Sequence record: PP213477.1
DNA from: Escherichia phage vB_Eco_ZCEC08
Length of the DNA stretch: 47,926 nt
Strand: one strand, 5' to 3'
Part shown: positions 8,791 through 46,690 of the stretch, in pieces
Numbering within the stretch: position 1 is the stretch's first letter
Layout of the letters: each line of letters starts with the position of its first letter
Position numbers and translations under genes: made by a program
Notes under the pieces: model-generated
Told to the model about the DNA's origin: nothing
What the model saw: only the letters and a program-made list of their open reading frames with translations
Database searches by the model: none

Positions 8791-9092
8791 TATTTAATCT
8801 CTCCGTTCAGTTCATTAACAATTAACGTTGCATAGCCAGCAATATCTTTCCAGCTGTCATCATAAGTCGGGTCGCCATTCAGAATGCGCCCAATCTTGTG
8901 CTGAATCATGTCGAGCGCCTCGCGTTGACTTGGTGTGAGATTGCGCCAGCCATCTACCTCGCGCATCACATCTTTCAACTCCTGCATAATTTCAGCGCCG
9001 TCTTTGAATTTACCGTATCGACTACCGCGTTCGGTGATGAGTCGCTCTGTTGCGTCAGTATGGCGCTTATCGCCCGTGATTTGTGAACTCAT
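8790..9092 (-). CDS. hypothetical protein (100 aa)
   Basis: ORF track. Confidence 0.5.
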   Translation of the reverse strand: MSSQITGDKRHTDATERLITERGSRYGKFKDGAEIMQELKDVMREVDGWRNLTPSQREALDMIQHKIGRILNGDPTYDDSWKDIAGYATLIVNELNGEIK

Positions 9093-9579
9093 TGTGATGC
9101 ATTCTCCTGAATTCTTTTATTTTTGCTTCTGCTTCTCTTATGTCGGAAAAGTAACCAACTGTGAATCTTTTGCCATTTACTCCAACTCTTGCATGCCACT
9201 TGTTGTGCGATGAACTCCAGTTAACCCCCTTGATACCGCTAGTGTTGTTTTTGTTCATTGCTTTGTTGTGGCTATTCTCAAATTTGCTGGCCTCCCTTAA
9301 ATTGCACGCCCTGTTGTCATTGCGAATGCCATTAATGTGGTCAATCATTTCACTTGCTGGCGCGCCATGAATGCATATCCATGCCAATCTGTGAGCAAGA
9401 AAAGCCCTACCGCAAAGAATTATTTGCACATATCCATCTGGCTTTAAGTAGCCAGCCACACTCCCTTTTTCTGCAATCCTATTCCTTGTCTTTAGCCATT
9501 TAAATTCCCCAGTTAGTGGATTGTAGTAAAGGTAACTCAATATAAACTCCCTACTCGGCTCATCTCTCCTATGCCTCAT
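9067..9579 (-). CDS. HNH homing endonuclease (AP2-domain type), paralogue 1
   Basis: HRLAW..., IDHINGIRNDNRACNLREAS, GVNWSSSHNKWHARV; paralogous to 10322..10861 and 47414..47926. Confidence 0.7.
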   Translation of the reverse strand: MRHRRDEPSREFILSYLYYNPLTGEFKWLKTRNRIAEKGSVAGYLKPDGYVQIILCGRAFLAHRLAWICIHGAPASEMIDHINGIRNDNRACNLREASKFENSHNKAMNKNNTSGIKGVNWSSSHNKWHARVGVNGKRFTVGYFSDIREAEAKIKEFRRMHHNEFTNHGR

Positions 9580-9782
9580 TTCTCATCCTCTTTCATTGTC
9601 ACCCTATTATTCTCGTCAACACTGAAGTTGGCCCGAATCAAATCATACATATCTTCCTTAGGCATATCAGCCAGCGCCACATAGCAACGGGCGAAGTAGC
9701 GAACATCACGGAGTGTCAGCGGTTGTCGCTTCTCCACAATGCTGGTGATAATGCCCATCGGCTCGCGTCGTGGTCTTGGCAT
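9576..9782 (-). CDS. hypothetical protein (68 aa)
   Basis: ORF track; first gene of the minus operon. Confidence 0.45.
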   Translation of the reverse strand: MPRPRREPMGIITSIVEKRQPLTLRDVRYFARCYVALADMPKEDMYDLIRANFSVDENNRVTMKEDEK

Positions 9783-9808
9783 ATTTACTACTCCTTCTCG
9801 AAAAACAT

Positions 9809-9853
9809 CTTGACGTTTCTACATCATTTAGTCAATACTTGTTGACGTAGATT
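9809..9853. promoter_or_regulatory. divergent regulatory region with inverted TCTACATCA / TGACGTAGA motifs
   Basis: CTTGACGTTTCTACATCATTTAGTCAATACTTGTTGACGTAGATTG between divergent genes. Confidence 0.3.
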
Positions 9854-9881
9854 GTACCACAACGGAAAAGGTGATGTGGAA

Positions 9882-10079
9882 ATGCGATACAAAGAAATAG
9901 CAGCGAGATACCAGAAGGAAGTTCGCGAGGTTATGGAAATCCTTAACGTTCGCGAGGATACCATTAAGTTTGTGGAAACCGCCATGTGTTCACTGGCGCT
10001 TGAAGCGGAGGTTGCGGGTCGTGAAAAGGCTGACGAACTTATATCTGCGGTGGTTTATAGTTCAACCAGTAACGGTTGA
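9882..10079 (+). CDS. hypothetical protein
   Basis: internal ATG (residue 11 of ORF 9852..10079) after AAAGGTGA. Confidence 0.45.
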   Translation: MRYKEIAARYQKEVREVMEILNVREDTIKFVETAMCSLALEAEVAGREKADELISAVVYSSTSNG

Positions 10080-10139
10080 AGATGAAGGTTATCTGTGCGT
10101 TGAGCACGTTGTTATCAAATTCTACGGGAGAAATTATAA

Positions 10140-10334
10140 ATGGCGCATGACGAACTGTACGAAGAATCGTTAATCCAGAGGTTGAATGAAGTTGAGCGCA
10201 CTCGCGAATGGCTGGAGTGCGAGTTACGAGAAGTGCGCAACCGCCTGCAACGCAAGCGCAGTCAGCAAAGAGATGTCATCGACTGGTCTGGGGGTACACC
10301 TAAATTTAACAATCTGGGAGAATGGTTGAAATGA
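10140..10334 (+). CDS. hypothetical protein (64 aa)
   Basis: ORF track. Confidence 0.4.
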   Translation: MAHDELYEESLIQRLNEVERTREWLECELREVRNRLQRKRSQQRDVIDWSGGTPKFNNLGEWLK

Positions 10335-10861
10335 GCAACATTAGTCAGGAAAGCATTTTAAAGTTCCTCCAGTATGATGAAAATACAGGAAACTTTCTAT
10401 GGATTGATAATTTCTCAAGAAAATCAAAGAAAGGGAAGGTGGCTGGAGGTATTACATCGCATGGGTATTGGAGAATTCAACTCCCCATCGGGAGGTTTTA
10501 CGCACACAGAATGGCGTGGATTGTTTGCAATGGAGATATACCAAACGGATATGAGATTGATCACATAAATGGGAACAAGAAAGATAATCGCATCAGCAAC
10601 CTAAGATTGGTCACAAGAGGTCAAAATGTTATGAATGTAGGCGTGAAAAACAATAATACAAGCGGAGTTAAGGATGTTGTTTGGGACTCTTCGCGAGAAA
10701 GGTGGGGGGTTCAAATTACAGCCAATGGCAAGCATTATTATGGAGGTAGATTCTCGTCAATAACACAAGCAAAAGAGGAGAGGAACAGGCTCATAAAGAT
10801 GGTTCACGGGAAATTTTTGAATACAAAAGGTGAGCAATATGACACTACTAATGAACGATGA
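10322..10861 (+). CDS. HNH homing endonuclease (AP2-domain type), paralogue 2
   Basis: HRMAW..., IDHINGNKKDNRISNLRLVT, GVKDVVWDSSRERWGVQI. Confidence 0.7.
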   Translation: MVEMSNISQESILKFLQYDENTGNFLWIDNFSRKSKKGKVAGGITSHGYWRIQLPIGRFYAHRMAWIVCNGDIPNGYEIDHINGNKKDNRISNLRLVTRGQNVMNVGVKNNNTSGVKDVVWDSSRERWGVQITANGKHYYGGRFSSITQAKEERNRLIKMVHGKFLNTKGEQYDTTNER

Positions 10862-11075
10862 GAAATTACTTGAATGCCCGTTTTGTGGTTGTGATGACGT
10901 AAGTGTTATTGATGACGGCGAATGGTTGCACGTTGAGTGCGGAGATTGTTTTTGCCGCACTGACTCGTATTGCTGCGCATCCACGGCAATGAAGAAATGG
11001 AACACAAGAGGTGGACACCTCTACACTTCCGACGACTTCAATCAGGCAGCAGAGGAGCGCGATTATGGATTATAA
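10830..11075 (+). CDS. Lar-like restriction alleviation protein (zinc ribbon)
   Basis: N-terminal LLECPFCGCDD...C..C pattern typical of the Lar family; exact start uncertain. Confidence 0.45.
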   Translation: MSNMTLLMNDEKLLECPFCGCDDVSVIDDGEWLHVECGDCFCRTDSYCCASTAMKKWNTRGGHLYTSDDFNQAAEERDYGL

Positions 11076-11553
11076 ATCACAAATCATGCGCGTGATTGTC
11101 AATCATCCAGGGGCAACGCGTGCATATATTGAAAAGCATTGCGGAGGTAAGCATTCAAGCACCACAACGCACCGTTTACATGAGATGCTTGCGCTTGGAT
11201 TCATTCGTCGAGAGAAGTCCGTGATTCGTGGTGGTAAGTGGCAGTATAAGTATTTCATCTCTGAGGATGCAGCAGGTATTGATGATGCGATTAAGTGCCA
11301 TTTGCTTGATAACGCTGGCGCAGAGGTGAAAGAAATCAGTGCAGCCACTGACCTTGATTACCGAATTGTAAAAAGCCGCATCCGCATTATGTTTCATAAC
11401 GGTGATGTGACGCGAAGCTATGACCACCACAAGAAGCTGTGGCGTTACTCATGGAAGGAGCAGGAAGTAAATATGAGCAATCTGTTTAATTCACTTCTTC
11501 GCAGCGCAAGAGGTCATTATGGGAAAAGCGAAACGCAAGAAGCAGGAGTATGA
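11065..11553 (+). CDS. hypothetical protein
   Basis: internal ATG (residue 19 of ORF 11011..11553) overlapping upstream stop. Confidence 0.5.
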   Translation: MDYKSQIMRVIVNHPGATRAYIEKHCGGKHSSTTTHRLHEMLALGFIRREKSVIRGGKWQYKYFISEDAAGIDDAIKCHLLDNAGAEVKEISAATDLDYRIVKSRIRIMFHNGDVTRSYDHHKKLWRYSWKEQEVNMSNLFNSLLRSARGHYGKSETQEAGV

Positions 11554-11678
11554 GCAATTACCGCCATGCAAAATGTCAGGAATGCCGCAACAGGAGGATG
11601 TGATTCTCACCGAAGCTGAGTGGCGCAAGGTGGCGAGGGTGCAAATCATGTTCCGCAAACTTGCTGAGGATGTACTAA

Positions 11679-12083
11679 ATGAGATGGGCTATTAAGCATA
11701 AATCTGGCAGAACTCTGTTTGTGACATCAGATGAGTTTATTGCCAATAACCGTAAAGAGATGGGCTGGATAGTGGAGGAAGTGAAGATGACGAGTAGAGA
11801 GCAGTTTGAAAAAGAAATGAGTGACAAGTATGAGTGGTTCAGTGATGCGATCGCTTGTGCTGATTTTTGCGGTGACGATGATGATGGCTACTATGTTGGC
11901 GGTGATTACCTCTATTATGGGAAGTCATGTTCAGAGGCTTTGTTTTGGTTATGGCGAGGATGGCAGGCATCGCGCGCAGCAATTGAGATTCAAGCGTGTC
12001 CATGTCCAAACGATCATGGCCCGAATGTTGATGACCATTATCGCGAGCAAATTAATAACGCAGGCTTAAAGGTGAAAAAATGA
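11679..12083 (+). CDS. hypothetical protein (134 aa)
   Basis: ORF track. Confidence 0.5.
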   Translation: MRWAIKHKSGRTLFVTSDEFIANNRKEMGWIVEEVKMTSREQFEKEMSDKYEWFSDAIACADFCGDDDDGYYVGGDYLYYGKSCSEALFWLWRGWQASRAAIEIQACPCPNDHGPNVDDHYREQINNAGLKVKK

Positions 12084-12406
12084 TTATCCAGTTAAACGAC
12101 ATCATGAAAGCAGATATCATTCAGCTTGAAGATTATGACATGCAACTGGCGTTTGAAATCGAAACTGTCGAGCGTCAACTGCAGTATGCTGATAAGAAGA
12201 ATGATCGCGTCTGGCACGAGAAAGCACTTAAGGCGCGCGACCACATGAAGCGCACGCGAGCACTCATTAAAACTCGTCTTGATAAGCTATATTTTGGCGA
12301 AGAGCGAATGCTGCATGGCGCTATACTGGCGCAAATCCGCAAGGAAATGCCGATTGGTAAGTTTATGACATACGTTCATCGCGCAAAGCAGGAGGCTGGG
12401 TTATGA
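12080..12406 (+). CDS. hypothetical protein (108 aa)
   Basis: ORF track; ATGA overlap with upstream gene. Confidence 0.5.
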   Translation: MIIQLNDIMKADIIQLEDYDMQLAFEIETVERQLQYADKKNDRVWHEKALKARDHMKRTRALIKTRLDKLYFGEERMLHGAILAQIRKEMPIGKFMTYVHRAKQEAGL

Positions 12407-12516
12407 TGGACTTCCTGAACTGGTTCGCTGACCACTGGATTTTAACTTTATTCTCCTGCTATTTATTATTTGCTGGCCTAGAGGAATTGATTAGAGCATG
12501 GAGGGGGAAGCCATGA
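12403..12516 (+). CDS. small hydrophobic peptide (37 aa)
   Basis: hand-translated MMDFLNWFADHWILTLFSCYLLFAGL...; overlaps upstream stop. Confidence 0.3.
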   Translation: MMDFLNWFADHWILTLFSCYLLFAGLEELIRAWRGKP

Positions 12517-12659
12517 TTCCATTACTGTTGATATTATCAGCCTACGCATTCGCGCGGGTATTTGAGGCCGATACTCTGTACCAGATGATTTGTTATGGCG
12601 CGCTGTTCTGCCTATCAGGTGCTGCGCTTGCATTTATGGATGATGTGATTTCAGAATAA
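12513..12659 (+). CDS. small hydrophobic peptide (48 aa)
   Basis: hand-translated MIPLLLILSAYAFARVF...GALFCLSGAALAF; ATGA overlap. Confidence 0.3.
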   Translation: MIPLLLILSAYAFARVFEADTLYQMICYGALFCLSGAALAFMDDVISE

Positions 12660-12714
12660 CTCCGTATATCTTTTGTTCATCATGGGCTGCTATCATTTAA
12701 TCAGGAGGTAGCCC

Positions 12715-12837
12715 ATGAACATAATCCCTATCACTTACTTTCTCACGCTATACGCACTCACCAATTCGCCATTGTTTGCACTGGCTACCGCCTCGTGGTG
12801 CTATATCTCCCTGTGTTATAATTCGACCACAAACTAA
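12715..12837 (+). CDS. small hydrophobic peptide (40 aa)
   Basis: hand-translated MNIIPITYFLTLYALTNSPLFALATASW...; AGGAGG upstream. Confidence 0.3.
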   Translation: MNIIPITYFLTLYALTNSPLFALATASWCYISLCYNSTTN

Positions 12838-12852
12838 CCGTGGAGCTACGCG

Positions 12853-14606
<1,754 letters not shown>

Positions 14607-17514: not shown

Positions 17515-17687
17515 CACTTCACCTTAATCATATGCTGTTTTGCAACCTTCAGGCACTCTTCGAAAATGCCTCCCTTCTTAGCGCTCTGATTGCGCTTGTA
17601 ATACTGAATCGCCGCATCAATTGCCATCTGGTCAATGTCAGGCAGCTTGTTGCGAAGTTGTTTTTCAATGAATTGTTCTGGTGTCAT
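17514..17687 (-). CDS. small hypothetical protein (57 aa)
   Basis: hand-translated MTPEQFIEKQLRNKLPDIDQMAIDAAIQYYKRNQ...; couples methyltransferase and clamp-like genes. Confidence 0.3.
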   Translation of the reverse strand: MTPEQFIEKQLRNKLPDIDQMAIDAAIQYYKRNQSAKKGGIFEECLKVAKQHMIKVK

Positions 17688-18487
17688 TAAACGGACCTCA
17701 TGAATGCTTTAATGAATTCTGCTGCGACTTGTGGAACTATGGCATTACCATAACCGCGCAATCGTCCCACTCTTGCGGATACCCCATGAGTTGCCTCGCA
17801 AAATCCGCCTGGTATGACTCTAGTTTCCTTATCTGCTCCATGGTTGGGTTTCCATGAATCCCATAAACATGAAGCCACATCTGGCGATAAAGAGTATCGT
17901 TCCTGAATTTCCCGTCCTTTCTGTAAAATGACTTGCTGAGATTCCCGTAATCCTTCCATCCTCGCGCCGTTGGTGTCGCCCATCCTCGCGCCAAAGATGA
18001 TTCTTTTCCTTTCCTGTGGAGAGCCGACGCTGCAAGCTGGCAATACTGACGCCCCGCAGGCGTAGCCTTTGTCTTCCAGGTTAAGGAATACAAAATCGAG
18101 CCAGTGCTTCCCAATTGCTGCTGCAACCTGCTCTCCAAACAGCAATTCAGGCTTGCACTCTCTGATGAGCCTGAGAAATGCTGGGGCAAGGTGTCGATCG
18201 TCGTCAAATCCGAGAGACTTACCGGCAACGCTAAACGGCTGGCAAGGTGGTGATCCTGTCCAGAGTCGAGTGCTTTCTGGTATTCCTGCCAGCTGGAGTG
18301 CAAGGGGCCACCCTCCGATTCCGGCAAAGAAGTGACACTGTGTAAATCCTTCCAGGTCTGAAGGGGTGACTTCGGTGATTGATCGTTCATCGACATATCC
18401 GTAAGGAATTAGTTTATTGTTAATTAATTCACGCAGCCATGCCGCTGCGCCCTTGTCCCACTCATTGTAATAGTGGACCATCATCAC
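17687..18487 (-). CDS. DNA (cytosine-5) methyltransferase
   Basis: motif I FFAGIGG, motif IV PPCQPFSVAGK, GEQV (ENV-like) motif. Confidence 0.8.
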   Translation of the reverse strand: MMMVHYYNEWDKGAAAWLRELINNKLIPYGYVDERSITEVTPSDLEGFTQCHFFAGIGGWPLALQLAGIPESTRLWTGSPPCQPFSVAGKSLGFDDDRHLAPAFLRLIRECKPELLFGEQVAAAIGKHWLDFVFLNLEDKGYACGASVLPACSVGSPQERKRIIFGARMGDTNGARMEGLRESQQVILQKGREIQERYSLSPDVASCLWDSWKPNHGADKETRVIPGGFCEATHGVSARVGRLRGYGNAIVPQVAAEFIKAFMRSV

Positions 18488-19293
18488 ATCTTCTCCAGAA
18501 TTGCCATCACCTCGTGAATATCAGCAACAGGAATCTTGATAAACTCCTCATTCTCTGCCACTACATGACCAGCAAGAAGAATAACGTGGTCAGCTGGCTT
18601 CAGTAACTCAATCAGTCGGTCTACTGGCTTAATCTTTTTCGACTTAAGCACCTTCGCCGTTACCTTATCCTTGCCTTGCGCCTTCGCTTCTTCGACTGCC
18701 TCGTCGATAACTTTAACCGCATCATCGCCATGTTCGCGAGTTACTGCTACGGCATTTGCATAGCTGATTTGCCCTGCACTGATTCGCGCTTTTACTTCGG
18801 CTGGCACATCACCCAGTGACAGGTGCATCTGCACGTCAGAAACTGAGCGCCCTACCTTCTTGGCGATTTCCTCGTTGGTCCAGCCAAAACCCTTCAGTCG
18901 CGTGTAAGCCTTTGCGCGTTCAAACGGGTCAAGCTGCTTACCCTGACTGGACGACACCATGAAGGCGATTTTATCTGCTTCGCCTCCTGTGAAATCCTTG
19001 CACTCAATACGAACAATTGGTGCGCCACGCTCAATGGCACGCAATGCGCCTAGATAGCGATGCTGACCATCAAGAATGCGGATTCCCTTCTCATCAGGAA
19101 TAACTGTTAATGCTGGTAATGGCTGACCTGATTCCCAGCACTGCGCGAAATACTCCACATGCTGCTCGTCTGCTTCGCGGATGTTGTATCCCGGCTCCAG
19201 ATAGATTTGCTCCACTGGCACGAGATAGGTTTTGTTAACAGCGATTCCGTTGCGCGTTTCTTTGTCTGAATAGATTTTGCTAAGTGTTTTCAT
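18484..19293 (-). CDS. ParB-like nuclease domain protein
   Basis: ILDGQHRY (ParB/Srx DGxHR motif) plus helix-turn-helix-like TNEEIAKKVGRSVSDV; start moved to residue 32 (MKTLSK). Confidence 0.65.
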   Translation of the reverse strand: MKTLSKIYSDKETRNGIAVNKTYLVPVEQIYLEPGYNIREADEQHVEYFAQCWESGQPLPALTVIPDEKGIRILDGQHRYLGALRAIERGAPIVRIECKDFTGGEADKIAFMVSSSQGKQLDPFERAKAYTRLKGFGWTNEEIAKKVGRSVSDVQMHLSLGDVPAEVKARISAGQISYANAVAVTREHGDDAVKVIDEAVEEAKAQGKDKVTAKVLKSKKIKPVDRLIELLKPADHVILLAGHVVAENEEFIKIPVADIHEVMAILEKM

Positions 19294-19294
19294 A

Positions 19295-19486
19295 TCATTC
19301 ACCACTTTCTTCCAATAATTGCTCGTAATATGCGACGTACTCATTAGCAAGATGGTACAGGCGCTCAGCAGACTTGCGTTCTGCATTACTTAAGTCACCA
19401 ATAGACTCAATGTTGCCAATTGCATCAACACAATCATTGAAGTCTTGCTCTGTATTACGAAATCGACAGTAGGACATGTTTGCCAT
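19295..19486 (-). CDS. hypothetical protein (63 aa)
   Basis: ORF track. Confidence 0.4.
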   Translation of the reverse strand: MANMSYCRFRNTEQDFNDCVDAIGNIESIGDLSNAERKSAERLYHLANEYVAYYEQLLEESGE

Positions 19487-22617: not shown

Positions 22618-22694
22618 TGGTGGACACGGACGGATTTGAACCTTCAATCAGCCGATTATTAGTCGGTTGCTTTAACCAATTAAGCTACGCGTCC
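22618..22694 (-). tRNA. tRNA-like gene, isotype undetermined (hand fold gives anticodon AAU)
   Basis: minus strand reads GGACGCG-TA-GCTT-AATTGGTTA-AAGC-A-ACCGA-CTAATAA-TCGGC-TGATT-GAAGG-TTCAAAT-CCGTC-CGTGTCC-ACCA: 7-bp acceptor stem (one G.U), 4-bp D stem, T-loop TTCAAAT, encoded CCA; one mismatch each in anticodon and T stems. Confidence 0.5.
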
Positions 22695-46109: not shown

Positions 46110-46263
46110 ACAGAAAGTCTGGCAACTCGCAAAGCAGCACGAATTAGACGATTTCATCGAGAAGGTTGCAAAGACATTCCCTGACGCGCTTGAAGTCGTT
46201 CATGTGCAGACGCGAAATGAAAATGCATGGTGCTACACAAAAAATCATACAAATGGTAGATGA
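46096..46263 (+). CDS. hypothetical protein
   Basis: internal ATG (residue 23 of ORF 46030..46263). Confidence 0.35.
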   Translation: MQTTKQKVWQLAKQHELDDFIEKVAKTFPDALEVVHVQTRNENAWCYTKNHTNGR

Positions 46264-46264
46264 A

Positions 46265-46690
46265 ATGAAGCTAACAAAAAAACAACGCGAAGAGCTACGC
46301 ATGAAGTTCGGTGGTCGCTGTGCTTATTGTGGGTGTGAGCTACCCGAGAAAGGTTGGCATGCAGACCATGTTGAACCAGTGCTACGTAAATCTGAGCAGT
46401 GCATGAAGGCAGCGGCGAAAGGGATTTTCAAGCTGAAGGCAACCGGTGAGCTATATCGACCAGAAGCCGAGCGACTGGAAAACCTTTACCCTGCGTGCGC
46501 CCCCTGCAATCTGATGAAAACTTCCTATTCCCTGGAAATGTTCAGGAAGCAGGTATCTCTTCAGGTTGCTCGTGGGCGCAAAAGCAGCATGAATTTCCGC
46601 ACTGCAGAGCGTTTCGGTCTTATCGCCGTGGTGGAGAGACCAGTTGTTTTCTGGTTTGAGAAATACCAGGAAGAGAACGAAAAAAAATAA
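46265..46690 (+). CDS. HNH endonuclease (start uncertain, ORF track 46166..46690)
   Basis: CAYCGCEL...WHADHVEPV...NLYPACAPCNLMK. Confidence 0.6.
   Translation: MKLTKKQREELRMKFGGRCAYCGCELPEKGWHADHVEPVLRKSEQCMKAAAKGIFKLKATGELYRPEAERLENLYPACAPCNLMKTSYSLEMFRKQVSLQVARGRKSSMNFRTAERFGLIAVVERPVVFWFEKYQEENEKK

Follow-up and report, generated by a model that had tools for sequence, protein, structure and literature searches.

A Lar-family zinc-ribbon gene with conserved ends and a hypervariable core in Escherichia phage vB_Eco_ZCEC08

Background

Thousands of phage genes carry the name 'Lar-like restriction alleviation protein', and that name derives from one genetic study, published in 1995, of a single prophage gene. 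As that study is cited in two later papers, Lar of the Rac prophage relieves EcoKI restriction and boosts modification (King & Murray 1995, as cited in PMC4041452, PMC6158711). A later paper gave the same prophage gene the role of a DNase toxin: RalR, the founder of the family, was reported as a non-specific endodeoxyribonuclease with a small RNA antitoxin (PMC4041452). The present analysis concerns a gene of this name, lar, on the plus strand of Escherichia phage vB_Eco_ZCEC08 (sequence record PP213477.1). The 47,926 nucleotides (nt) of that record are the whole stretch of DNA analysed, hereafter the window, and they represent a complete siphophage genome (~47.9 kb) of the Skatevirus-like group. 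A Lar-like annotation at this gene position is already public for many relatives. Literature searches on Lar-like proteins in lytic phages returned annotation-level mentions only, plus one hint from a knockout screen of phage Bas63.

Ral of phage lambda is a functional analogue of Lar only and is not known to be homologous to it. Lambda Ral is a small early protein that relieves type IA restriction by raising de novo methylation through HsdM, where it acts via the N-terminal domain; it affects type IA enzymes only, and the relief that it gives is modest (PMC12707154). The window protein is likened to Ral by analogy. Ocr and ArdA are likewise small, strongly acidic phage or plasmid proteins aimed at type I enzymes (PMC6158711). 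However, these two are elongated DNA mimics without zinc, whereas the window gene encodes a zinc ribbon of 78 amino acids (aa) for which a Foldseek search of the PDB found no fold similarity to them.

One of the closest described proteins is Rac Lar/RalR itself (E. coli K-12 b1348, 64 aa). The window protein belongs to the same Pfam family, is likewise of single-domain size and has in common with it the CPFCGC knuckle, the A…WNxR helix and a second CxxC. It differs from RalR in an additional acidic tail of 21 aa and in its surroundings: the window gene lies in a lytic siphophage beside a MarR-like gene, while ralR lies beside recET in a prophage, and a RalA-type antitoxin is not evident in the window.

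Results and discussion

Family membership and anatomy of the lar product

The preliminary description of this DNA had assigned an open reading frame (ORF) at 10830..11075 on the plus strand to the Lar family from its CPFCG zinc-ribbon N-terminus, and had named a profile search as the appropriate check. The existence of the reading frame was confirmed, the motif is found at residues 13-17 and the profile search was positive (PF14354, PHROG 599). No ribosome-binding site precedes the GTG at 10830, while the ATG at 10839 sits 4-5 nt 3' of AAGGTGAG. Translation of the closest homologues (P0001 and P0004, N-termini MAL/MTLLMNDEK) also begins at the position of this ATG. Therefore, the coding sequence is most likely 10839..11075, with 78 codons before the stop. 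The gene and its parts are as follows.

10839..11075, plus strand: lar-like coding sequence, 78 aa (alternative start GTG 10830); PF14354 above the gathering cut-off, PHROG 599, nine invariant residues.
10875..10886, plus strand: first zinc knuckle, C13-P14-F15-C16; invariant in 26 diverse members and present in all but a few Skatevirus-like alleles.
10887..10997, plus strand: variable core, residues 17-53, comprising a beta-hairpin, the second knuckle C34..C37 (10938..10949) and the loop after it; 20 types in 62 loci.
10998..11009, plus strand: W54-N55-T56-R57 motif at the end of a helix predicted at 47-53 (AlphaFold2 model); W, N and R are invariant in the family.
11010..11075, plus strand: acidic C-terminal tail GGHLYTSDDFNQAAEERDYGL plus stop, clade-specific; the last codons overlap the GAGGAG ribosome-binding site and the ATG at 11065 of the next gene.

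Several comparisons, with scores well above chance, place the product in the Lar family. Pfam PF14354 (Lar_restr_allev) matched over positions 1-57 of its 58 with 39.7 bits (gathering score 28.6, E 6e-10), the match to PHROG 599 ('Lar-like restriction alleviation protein') had an E value of 1.6e-15, and BLASTP aligned Rac RalR/Lar at 32% identity across 53 aa (E 1e-10). An alignment of 26 members, consisting of the lar product, RalR and 24 diverse representatives, contained nine invariant columns (C13, P14, F15, C16, C34, C37, W54, N55 and R57). The second CxxC corresponds to residues 34-37 and WNTR to residues 54-57, and the invariant scaffold CPFC…CxxC…WNxR is present within a small single-domain protein. 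Apart from these nine positions, the family members in the same alignment are extremely diverse. At the level of sequence, the membership of the lar product in the Lar family is solid.

A phmmer search, run exhaustively against 1.84 billion representatives, returned 267 relatives at E <= 1e-3. Nearly all of these span residues 5-60 only, which makes the 21-residue acidic tail specific to the Skatevirus-like group; RalR and almost all of these 267 relatives lack it, and it is conserved in the Skatevirus-like loci. Homologues of lar were found in 217 phage records. The nearest is that of Escherichia phage C1 at 88% and none reaches 90%, and the best metagenomic protein is 92% identical to the window product. 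A motif scan and two local hidden Markov models (HMMs), applied to all six-frame ORFs, found no second Lar-like gene in the window; Skatevirus KFSST1 carries an annotated second one.

An AlphaFold2 model of the product, built from 26 homologues, displays a zinc-ribbon hairpin (strands 21-25 and 30-34), the short helix 47-53 ending at WNTR, a linker modelled with low confidence and, at the C-terminus, a helix of residues 64-75. The product is strongly acidic, with a net charge of -10 and an isoelectric point (pI) of 4.2, compared with +5 and 9.1 for RalR. All Skatevirus-like Lar alleles are acidic, with a mean net charge of -6.8. The acidic charge of the window product favours binding to protein over binding to DNA.

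Conserved ends and a hypervariable core

The diversity of lar was evaluated in 62 syntenic loci from IMG/VR (L003-L064), with core types set at 70% aa identity. A Lar orthologue is encoded in every one of them (62/62). Its N-terminus is nearly constant across loci (MMNDEGLLECPFCG), and its C-terminus is nearly constant in two tail variants (WNTRnGHLYTADDFNQAAEERDYGL or …YKQDAMERANGL). The intervening ~35 residues, which include the hairpin, the second knuckle and the loop after it, fall into 20 sequence types. The same arrangement extends to the named Skatevirus-like PHROG 599 Lar proteins (Bas77-81, ST1UNAM, C1, Sf11, Vi II-E1 and Klebsiella and Aeromonas relatives), which are orthologous to the window protein by position, in the order 64-aa gene, lar and MarR-like gene, and share with it the N-terminal sequence and the WNTRnGHLYTADD… tail. 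The window differs from them in its rare core allele and in an N-terminus remodelled by the insertion of an HNH gene.

Comparison of the window with its relatives demonstrates that lar alleles are replaced in otherwise near-identical genomes. At 85% aa identity or more, the window lar is matched in 1 of 61 loci, while the flanking genes are matched in 28-29 (the upstream 64-aa gene in 28/61), and the core aligns at the DNA level in 9 of 63 loci only. Against Salmonella phage vB_SenS_ST1UNAM, the window is 100% identical over the 300 nt upstream, falls to 44-72% nt identity across lar and returns to 87-97% from ~11030. Both ST1UNAM and phage 6947, close relatives with near-identical flanks, carry other core types. 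Recombination is indicated by the four core types that were found with both tail variants.

Between types, Nei-Gojobori estimates of dN were 0.84 in the core, compared with 0.17 at the N-terminal end and 0.18 at the C-terminal end. Synonymous divergence between types is saturated in the N-terminal and core segments and high in the tail (dS ~0.9); therefore, the conserved ends reflect purifying selection and not recent homogenisation. Read from these sequences, the alleles are old and individually constrained and have been exchanged among backbones, and they are not the product of ongoing point-mutational diversification. Within types, the dN/dS of the core is 0.20, which corresponds to purifying selection on each type, and ongoing positive selection inside core types was rejected on this value. 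As far as the literature was searched, neither this allele diversity nor the nested homing endonucleases at the locus have been described.

Homing endonuclease genes at both ends of lar

The remodelled N-terminus of the window lar results from the gene that precedes it. Two features are relevant here.

10322..10861, plus strand: HNH_3 homing endonuclease gene, PF13392 71.8 bits; directly upstream of lar.
10140..10334, plus strand: 64-aa upstream gene, PHROG 15697; it directly abuts lar in relatives without the HNH insertion.

The 3' end of the HNH_3 gene overlaps the start of lar by 23 nt and supplies both the ribosome-binding site of lar and its altered N-terminus. None of the 63 related loci has this gene, and two metagenomic contigs carry it in the same arrangement (L080 1993..2523 and L081 176..706). 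In the first of these contigs the HNH gene is 99.6% identical to that of the window at the nucleotide level, whereas the upstream gene is 86.7% identical and lar, of a different core type, 77.3%. The identity of 99.6% between flanks of 77-87% indicates that, to judge from these comparisons, the HNH_3 gene is a recently mobile element.

A different HNH gene is located inside lar, right after WNTRGG, in Bas78 (L078 1480..2221) and in Klebsiella phage KpnS_VR6602 (L079 1501..2236). Lar of both phages has a surrogate tail at its end, GFVYSNADYEDINNEVRS; the native tail has been displaced and now forms the in-frame end of the HNH ORF, …GHLYTAEDFNQAAEERDL or …GHLYTADDYKQDAMERANGL. Since HNH genes have been inserted at both ends, the conserved ends of lar are putative homing sites, and co-conversion during homing is a plausible route for the exchange of lar alleles. 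The arrangement resembles that of free-standing phage homing endonuclease genes (HNH or GIY-YIG, with co-conversion of flanking markers) in the near-identity of the endonuclease between genomes with diverged flanks and in an insertion placed exactly at the conserved ends of lar, where the interrupted coding end is restored. For the present genes homing is a prediction, and a link to the shuffling of lar alleles is proposed.

A second HNH_3 (plus AP2-like) endonuclease gene is located at 9067..9579 on the minus strand, in the leftward small-gene cluster, and is common to only 2 of 63 related loci.

A candidate host-interference factor

An invariant scaffold, a hypervariable surface, an acidic charge and frequent allele replacement fit a protein-binding host-interference factor. 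We propose that the lar product, a single four-cysteine zinc ribbon (CPFC…CxxC) followed by a short helix cap with WNxR and an acidic helical tail, would act as a small counter-defence protein that binds a host protein and not DNA. Its likeliest target, by analogy with Rac prophage Lar, would be the type I restriction-modification (R-M) complex, which would be pushed toward methylating phage DNA that arrives unmodified, and away from cutting it. The invariant knuckle and WNxR may provide the scaffold or effector surface, and the hypervariable surface of the hairpin and second knuckle may choose which host variant is recognised. The type I target is carried over from the single characterised member of the family, and protein binding and any effect on restriction are likewise inferred. 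We advance this combined statement, a genuine Lar-family zinc ribbon serving as a protein-binding host-interference factor with a type I R-M target, tentatively and as somewhat short of probable.

Several results weigh against this proposal. Among the more specific family models, TIGR03655 (anti_R_Lar) scored 34.2 bits, below its cut-off of 39.6, and the RalR equivalog NF007260 scored 27.5 bits, below its cut-off of 113. The confidence of the AlphaFold2 model is moderate (pLDDT, the predicted local distance difference test score, of 68). A sequence search found no solved structure for the Lar family, and a Foldseek search of the PDB with the model gave nothing significant, the best E value being 0.07 to generic zinc ribbons of the Elf1/ELOF1 and TFIIB-like kinds. 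The charge of the product is also opposite to that of RalR, the characterised member. To these are added plating data on relatives in the BASEL collection, in which phages Bas77-81 have annotated Lar-like genes. Type I system EcoCFT_I reduced the efficiency of plating (EOP) to 1e-4 to 1e-3 for Bas77-80 and to 0.4-1.5e-2 for Bas81. With EcoKI, the EOP was 0.02-0.2 for Bas77-80, with one site per genome, 0.6-1.8e-3 for Bas81, with two sites, and 2-6e-4 for the Lar-less Kagunavirus Bas73, also with two sites and ~3-fold below Bas81; local HMMs detected no Lar-like ORF in Bas73.

From these values, restriction by EcoKI scales with site number much as it does in a Lar-less phage, although the comparison is cross-genus and not isogenic and is suggestive only. 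Broad or strong protection by lar-type genes is excluded. A weak, Ral-like effect would stay compatible with the BASEL data, because the comparisons are not isogenic and the relief by lambda Ral is itself modest. Lar-like genes do not make such phages robust to restriction, which is relevant to the choice of phages for therapy or biocontrol.

The same data bear on a second explanation, in which lar encodes a counter-defence or host-takeover protein against a target other than type I R-M, or in which its diversity represents escape from a host sensor, and 'restriction alleviation' is merely an inherited name. A hypervariable core and allele swapping fit any arms race, the Lar-bearing relatives have no obvious relief from type I restriction, and the extreme diversity of the family beyond its scaffold points the same way. 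In a genome-wide knockout screen of phage Bas63, DH10B was the host in which the Lar homologue proved less essential, compared with three other strains, and type I R-M is not intact in two of those three; the authors suggested type IV systems instead (PMC11482910). On the other side, type IA alleviation is the one activity for which the family offers a biochemical or genetic precedent, and neither sequence nor context points to any alternative target. We regard this explanation as doubtful and still worth serious attention.

A role as a RalR-like non-specific DNase toxin, damaging host DNA or forming part of a type I toxin-antitoxin pair, would follow the later description of the family founder, and the RalR equivalog is indeed among the weak NCBIfam matches. 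Its score is far below the cut-off, however, and the negative charge of the window product is unfavourable for DNA binding. An Rfam scan of the window detected one tRNA and no other RNA family (RalA is possibly not modelled in Rfam), and a lytic phage has no need for an addiction module. Such a toxin is very improbable.

A non-defence role was considered in light of the gene downstream of lar.

11065..11553, plus strand: MarR-like winged-helix gene, PHROG 1687 E 2.8e-57; its start overlaps the lar stop.

The overlap of lar stop and MarR-like start (11062..11075) reads ATGGATTATAA, and the GAGGAG within the lar tail serves as the ribosome-binding site for the ATG at 11065, so that the two genes are probably translationally coupled. 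The pair is conserved, with the two annotations next to each other, in phages of Escherichia, Salmonella, Klebsiella and Aeromonas, and the two lar tails are each paired with one of two MarR-like allele groups. The lar product might, on this evidence, be a zinc-ribbon cofactor of the MarR-like protein or of host RNA polymerase in phage gene regulation, and its weak best fold matches are to transcription-factor zinc ribbons (Elf1/ELOF1, TFIIB-like). However, those matches are not significant, and the association of tail and allele may be mere clade linkage. Twenty core types against about two in the partner would be unexpected for a housekeeping regulatory partner, and in Bas78 and KpnS_VR6602 the tail has been displaced and replaced by a surrogate. 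A regulatory cofactor is an unlikely explanation.

Returning to the host-interference proposal, an extended form of it would treat the lar locus as a polymorphic specificity module. A constant zinc-knuckle and WNxR scaffold would carry at least 20 interchangeable core cassettes, each tuned to a different host defence variant (for example type I R-M families or hsd alleles) and shuffled between backbones by recombination promoted by homing endonucleases landing on both conserved ends. In this full form the idea is speculative and rather unlikely. The Skatevirus-like lar nonetheless constitutes a natural experiment, with conserved ends, at least 20 cores in one genus and R-M plating data on several carriers. 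Allele diversity and nested homing endonucleases make the function of the family experimentally tractable, and a few alleles could reveal whether the family name holds for lytic phages and whether the core sets target specificity.

The methyltransferase and ParB-like genes

The preliminary description had further combined lar with a 'Dcm-type methyltransferase' at 17687..18487 and a 'ParB-like nuclease' into layered protection against restriction-modification. The two genes are as follows.

most likely 17687..18484 (ORF to 18487), minus strand: compact orphan C5 cytosine DNA methyltransferase, 265 aa; PF00145, motifs, PHROG 363.
18484..19386, minus strand: ParB/Spo0J-like product; DGQHR motif, ParB helix-turn-helix (HTH) and an N-terminal domain of the ParB/Srx type; HTH_ParB, KorB, PHROG 1033.

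The methyltransferase is real. It matched PF00145 with 78.2 bits (cut-off 22) and PHROG 363 at E 3e-75, and its translation contains all catalytic motifs (I, IV, VI, VIII and X, read as FAGIGG, PPCQ, GEQV, QERKR and GNAIV). Dcm-type specificity is unsupported: TIGR00675 scored 64.1 bits against a cut-off of 100.65, and M.HhaI, the closest relative with a solved structure, aligns across the catalytic core only. The label 'Dcm-type' is true in a generic sense only. Sites for CCWGG are depleted in the window strongly (35 against ~96 expected), a depletion that would be surprising if the phage shielded CCWGG itself.

The ParB-like gene also exists, with a probable true start at M32 (19293). Its product matched HTH_ParB with 43.9 bits (cut-off 22.6), KorB with 27 (cut-off 22.3) and PHROG 1033 ('ParB-like partition protein') at E 1.8e-90. 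The nuclease assignment found no support, as no nuclease family was matched and the nearest solved homologues are DNA-binding proteins (Spo0J/ParB, Noc and KorB; Spo0J 1vz0 at E 6.5e-13 over residues 71-233). 'ParB-like nuclease' is a legacy domain name, and the protein, as far as homology goes, looks like a DNA-binding protein of the ParB/Spo0J type.

All three genes of the proposed anti-restriction toolkit are thus present, and an orphan phage methyltransferase can shield its own target site from cognate type II enzymes. However, lar is 7 kb from the methylase/ParB pair and on the opposite strand; we consider the pair an unlinked module that is not demonstrably in a common anti-restriction system with lar. 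Phages Bas77-80 combine a Lar-like gene with a methylase/ParB block 98.3-98.7% identical to that of the window, and the BASEL authors call these Skatevirus phages 'markedly sensitive to RM systems'. The type II and III systems EcoRI, EcoRV, EcoCFT_II and EcoP1 restrict them to an EOP of ~1e-5 to 1e-7, in addition to their restriction by the two type I systems. The genome instead leans heavily on site avoidance, with GATC, CCWGG, GGCC and GGNCC depleted 2-5 fold. Layered protection was consequently not borne out; a toolkit with broad protection is largely contradicted already for the six systems tested in relatives, and we consider it quite improbable.

Counts of other short palindromes over the whole window showed strong avoidance of GATC (45 against 211 expected, z -11), GGCC (68 against 137), GGNCC (35 against 92) and CTAG (16 against 51), with no depletion of GCGC, CCGG or GCNGC. 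Avoidance of type I sites was not significant in the window, where 4 EcoKI sites were counted (6.7 expected) and other type I motifs are within ~2 standard deviations of expectation.

Genome context

The 4-kb region around lar matches 157 phage records at 80-99% identity, Bas77-81 among them, with Salmonella phage vB_SenS_ST1UNAM as the best match. Ancestry of the genome is mosaic. The lar neighbourhood (9000..13000) is closest to ST1UNAM, at 95%, while the methylase/ParB block (17687..19386) is 93.6% identical to ST1UNAM and 98.3-98.7% identical to the E. coli phages HC6, 6947 and Bas77-80.

Promoter and terminator scans of the window gave counts no higher than the shuffled expectation. One site is listed for its position.

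9810..9839, plus strand: promoter-like site heading the rightward cluster of small genes in which lar lies; a consensus match only, weak evidence.

The window has a single tRNA gene at 22618..22694 on the minus strand (Rfam tRNA, 62 bits); ARAGORN assigns it to tRNA-Ile, and its anticodon, AAT, is unusual. An ORF at 46166..46690 on the plus strand, immediately upstream of the terminase region and the end of the genome, displays HNH motifs of the CxxC…HxxH…CxxC type (…CAYCGCEL…HADHVEP…CAPCNLMK), as recognised by eye from the ORF list.

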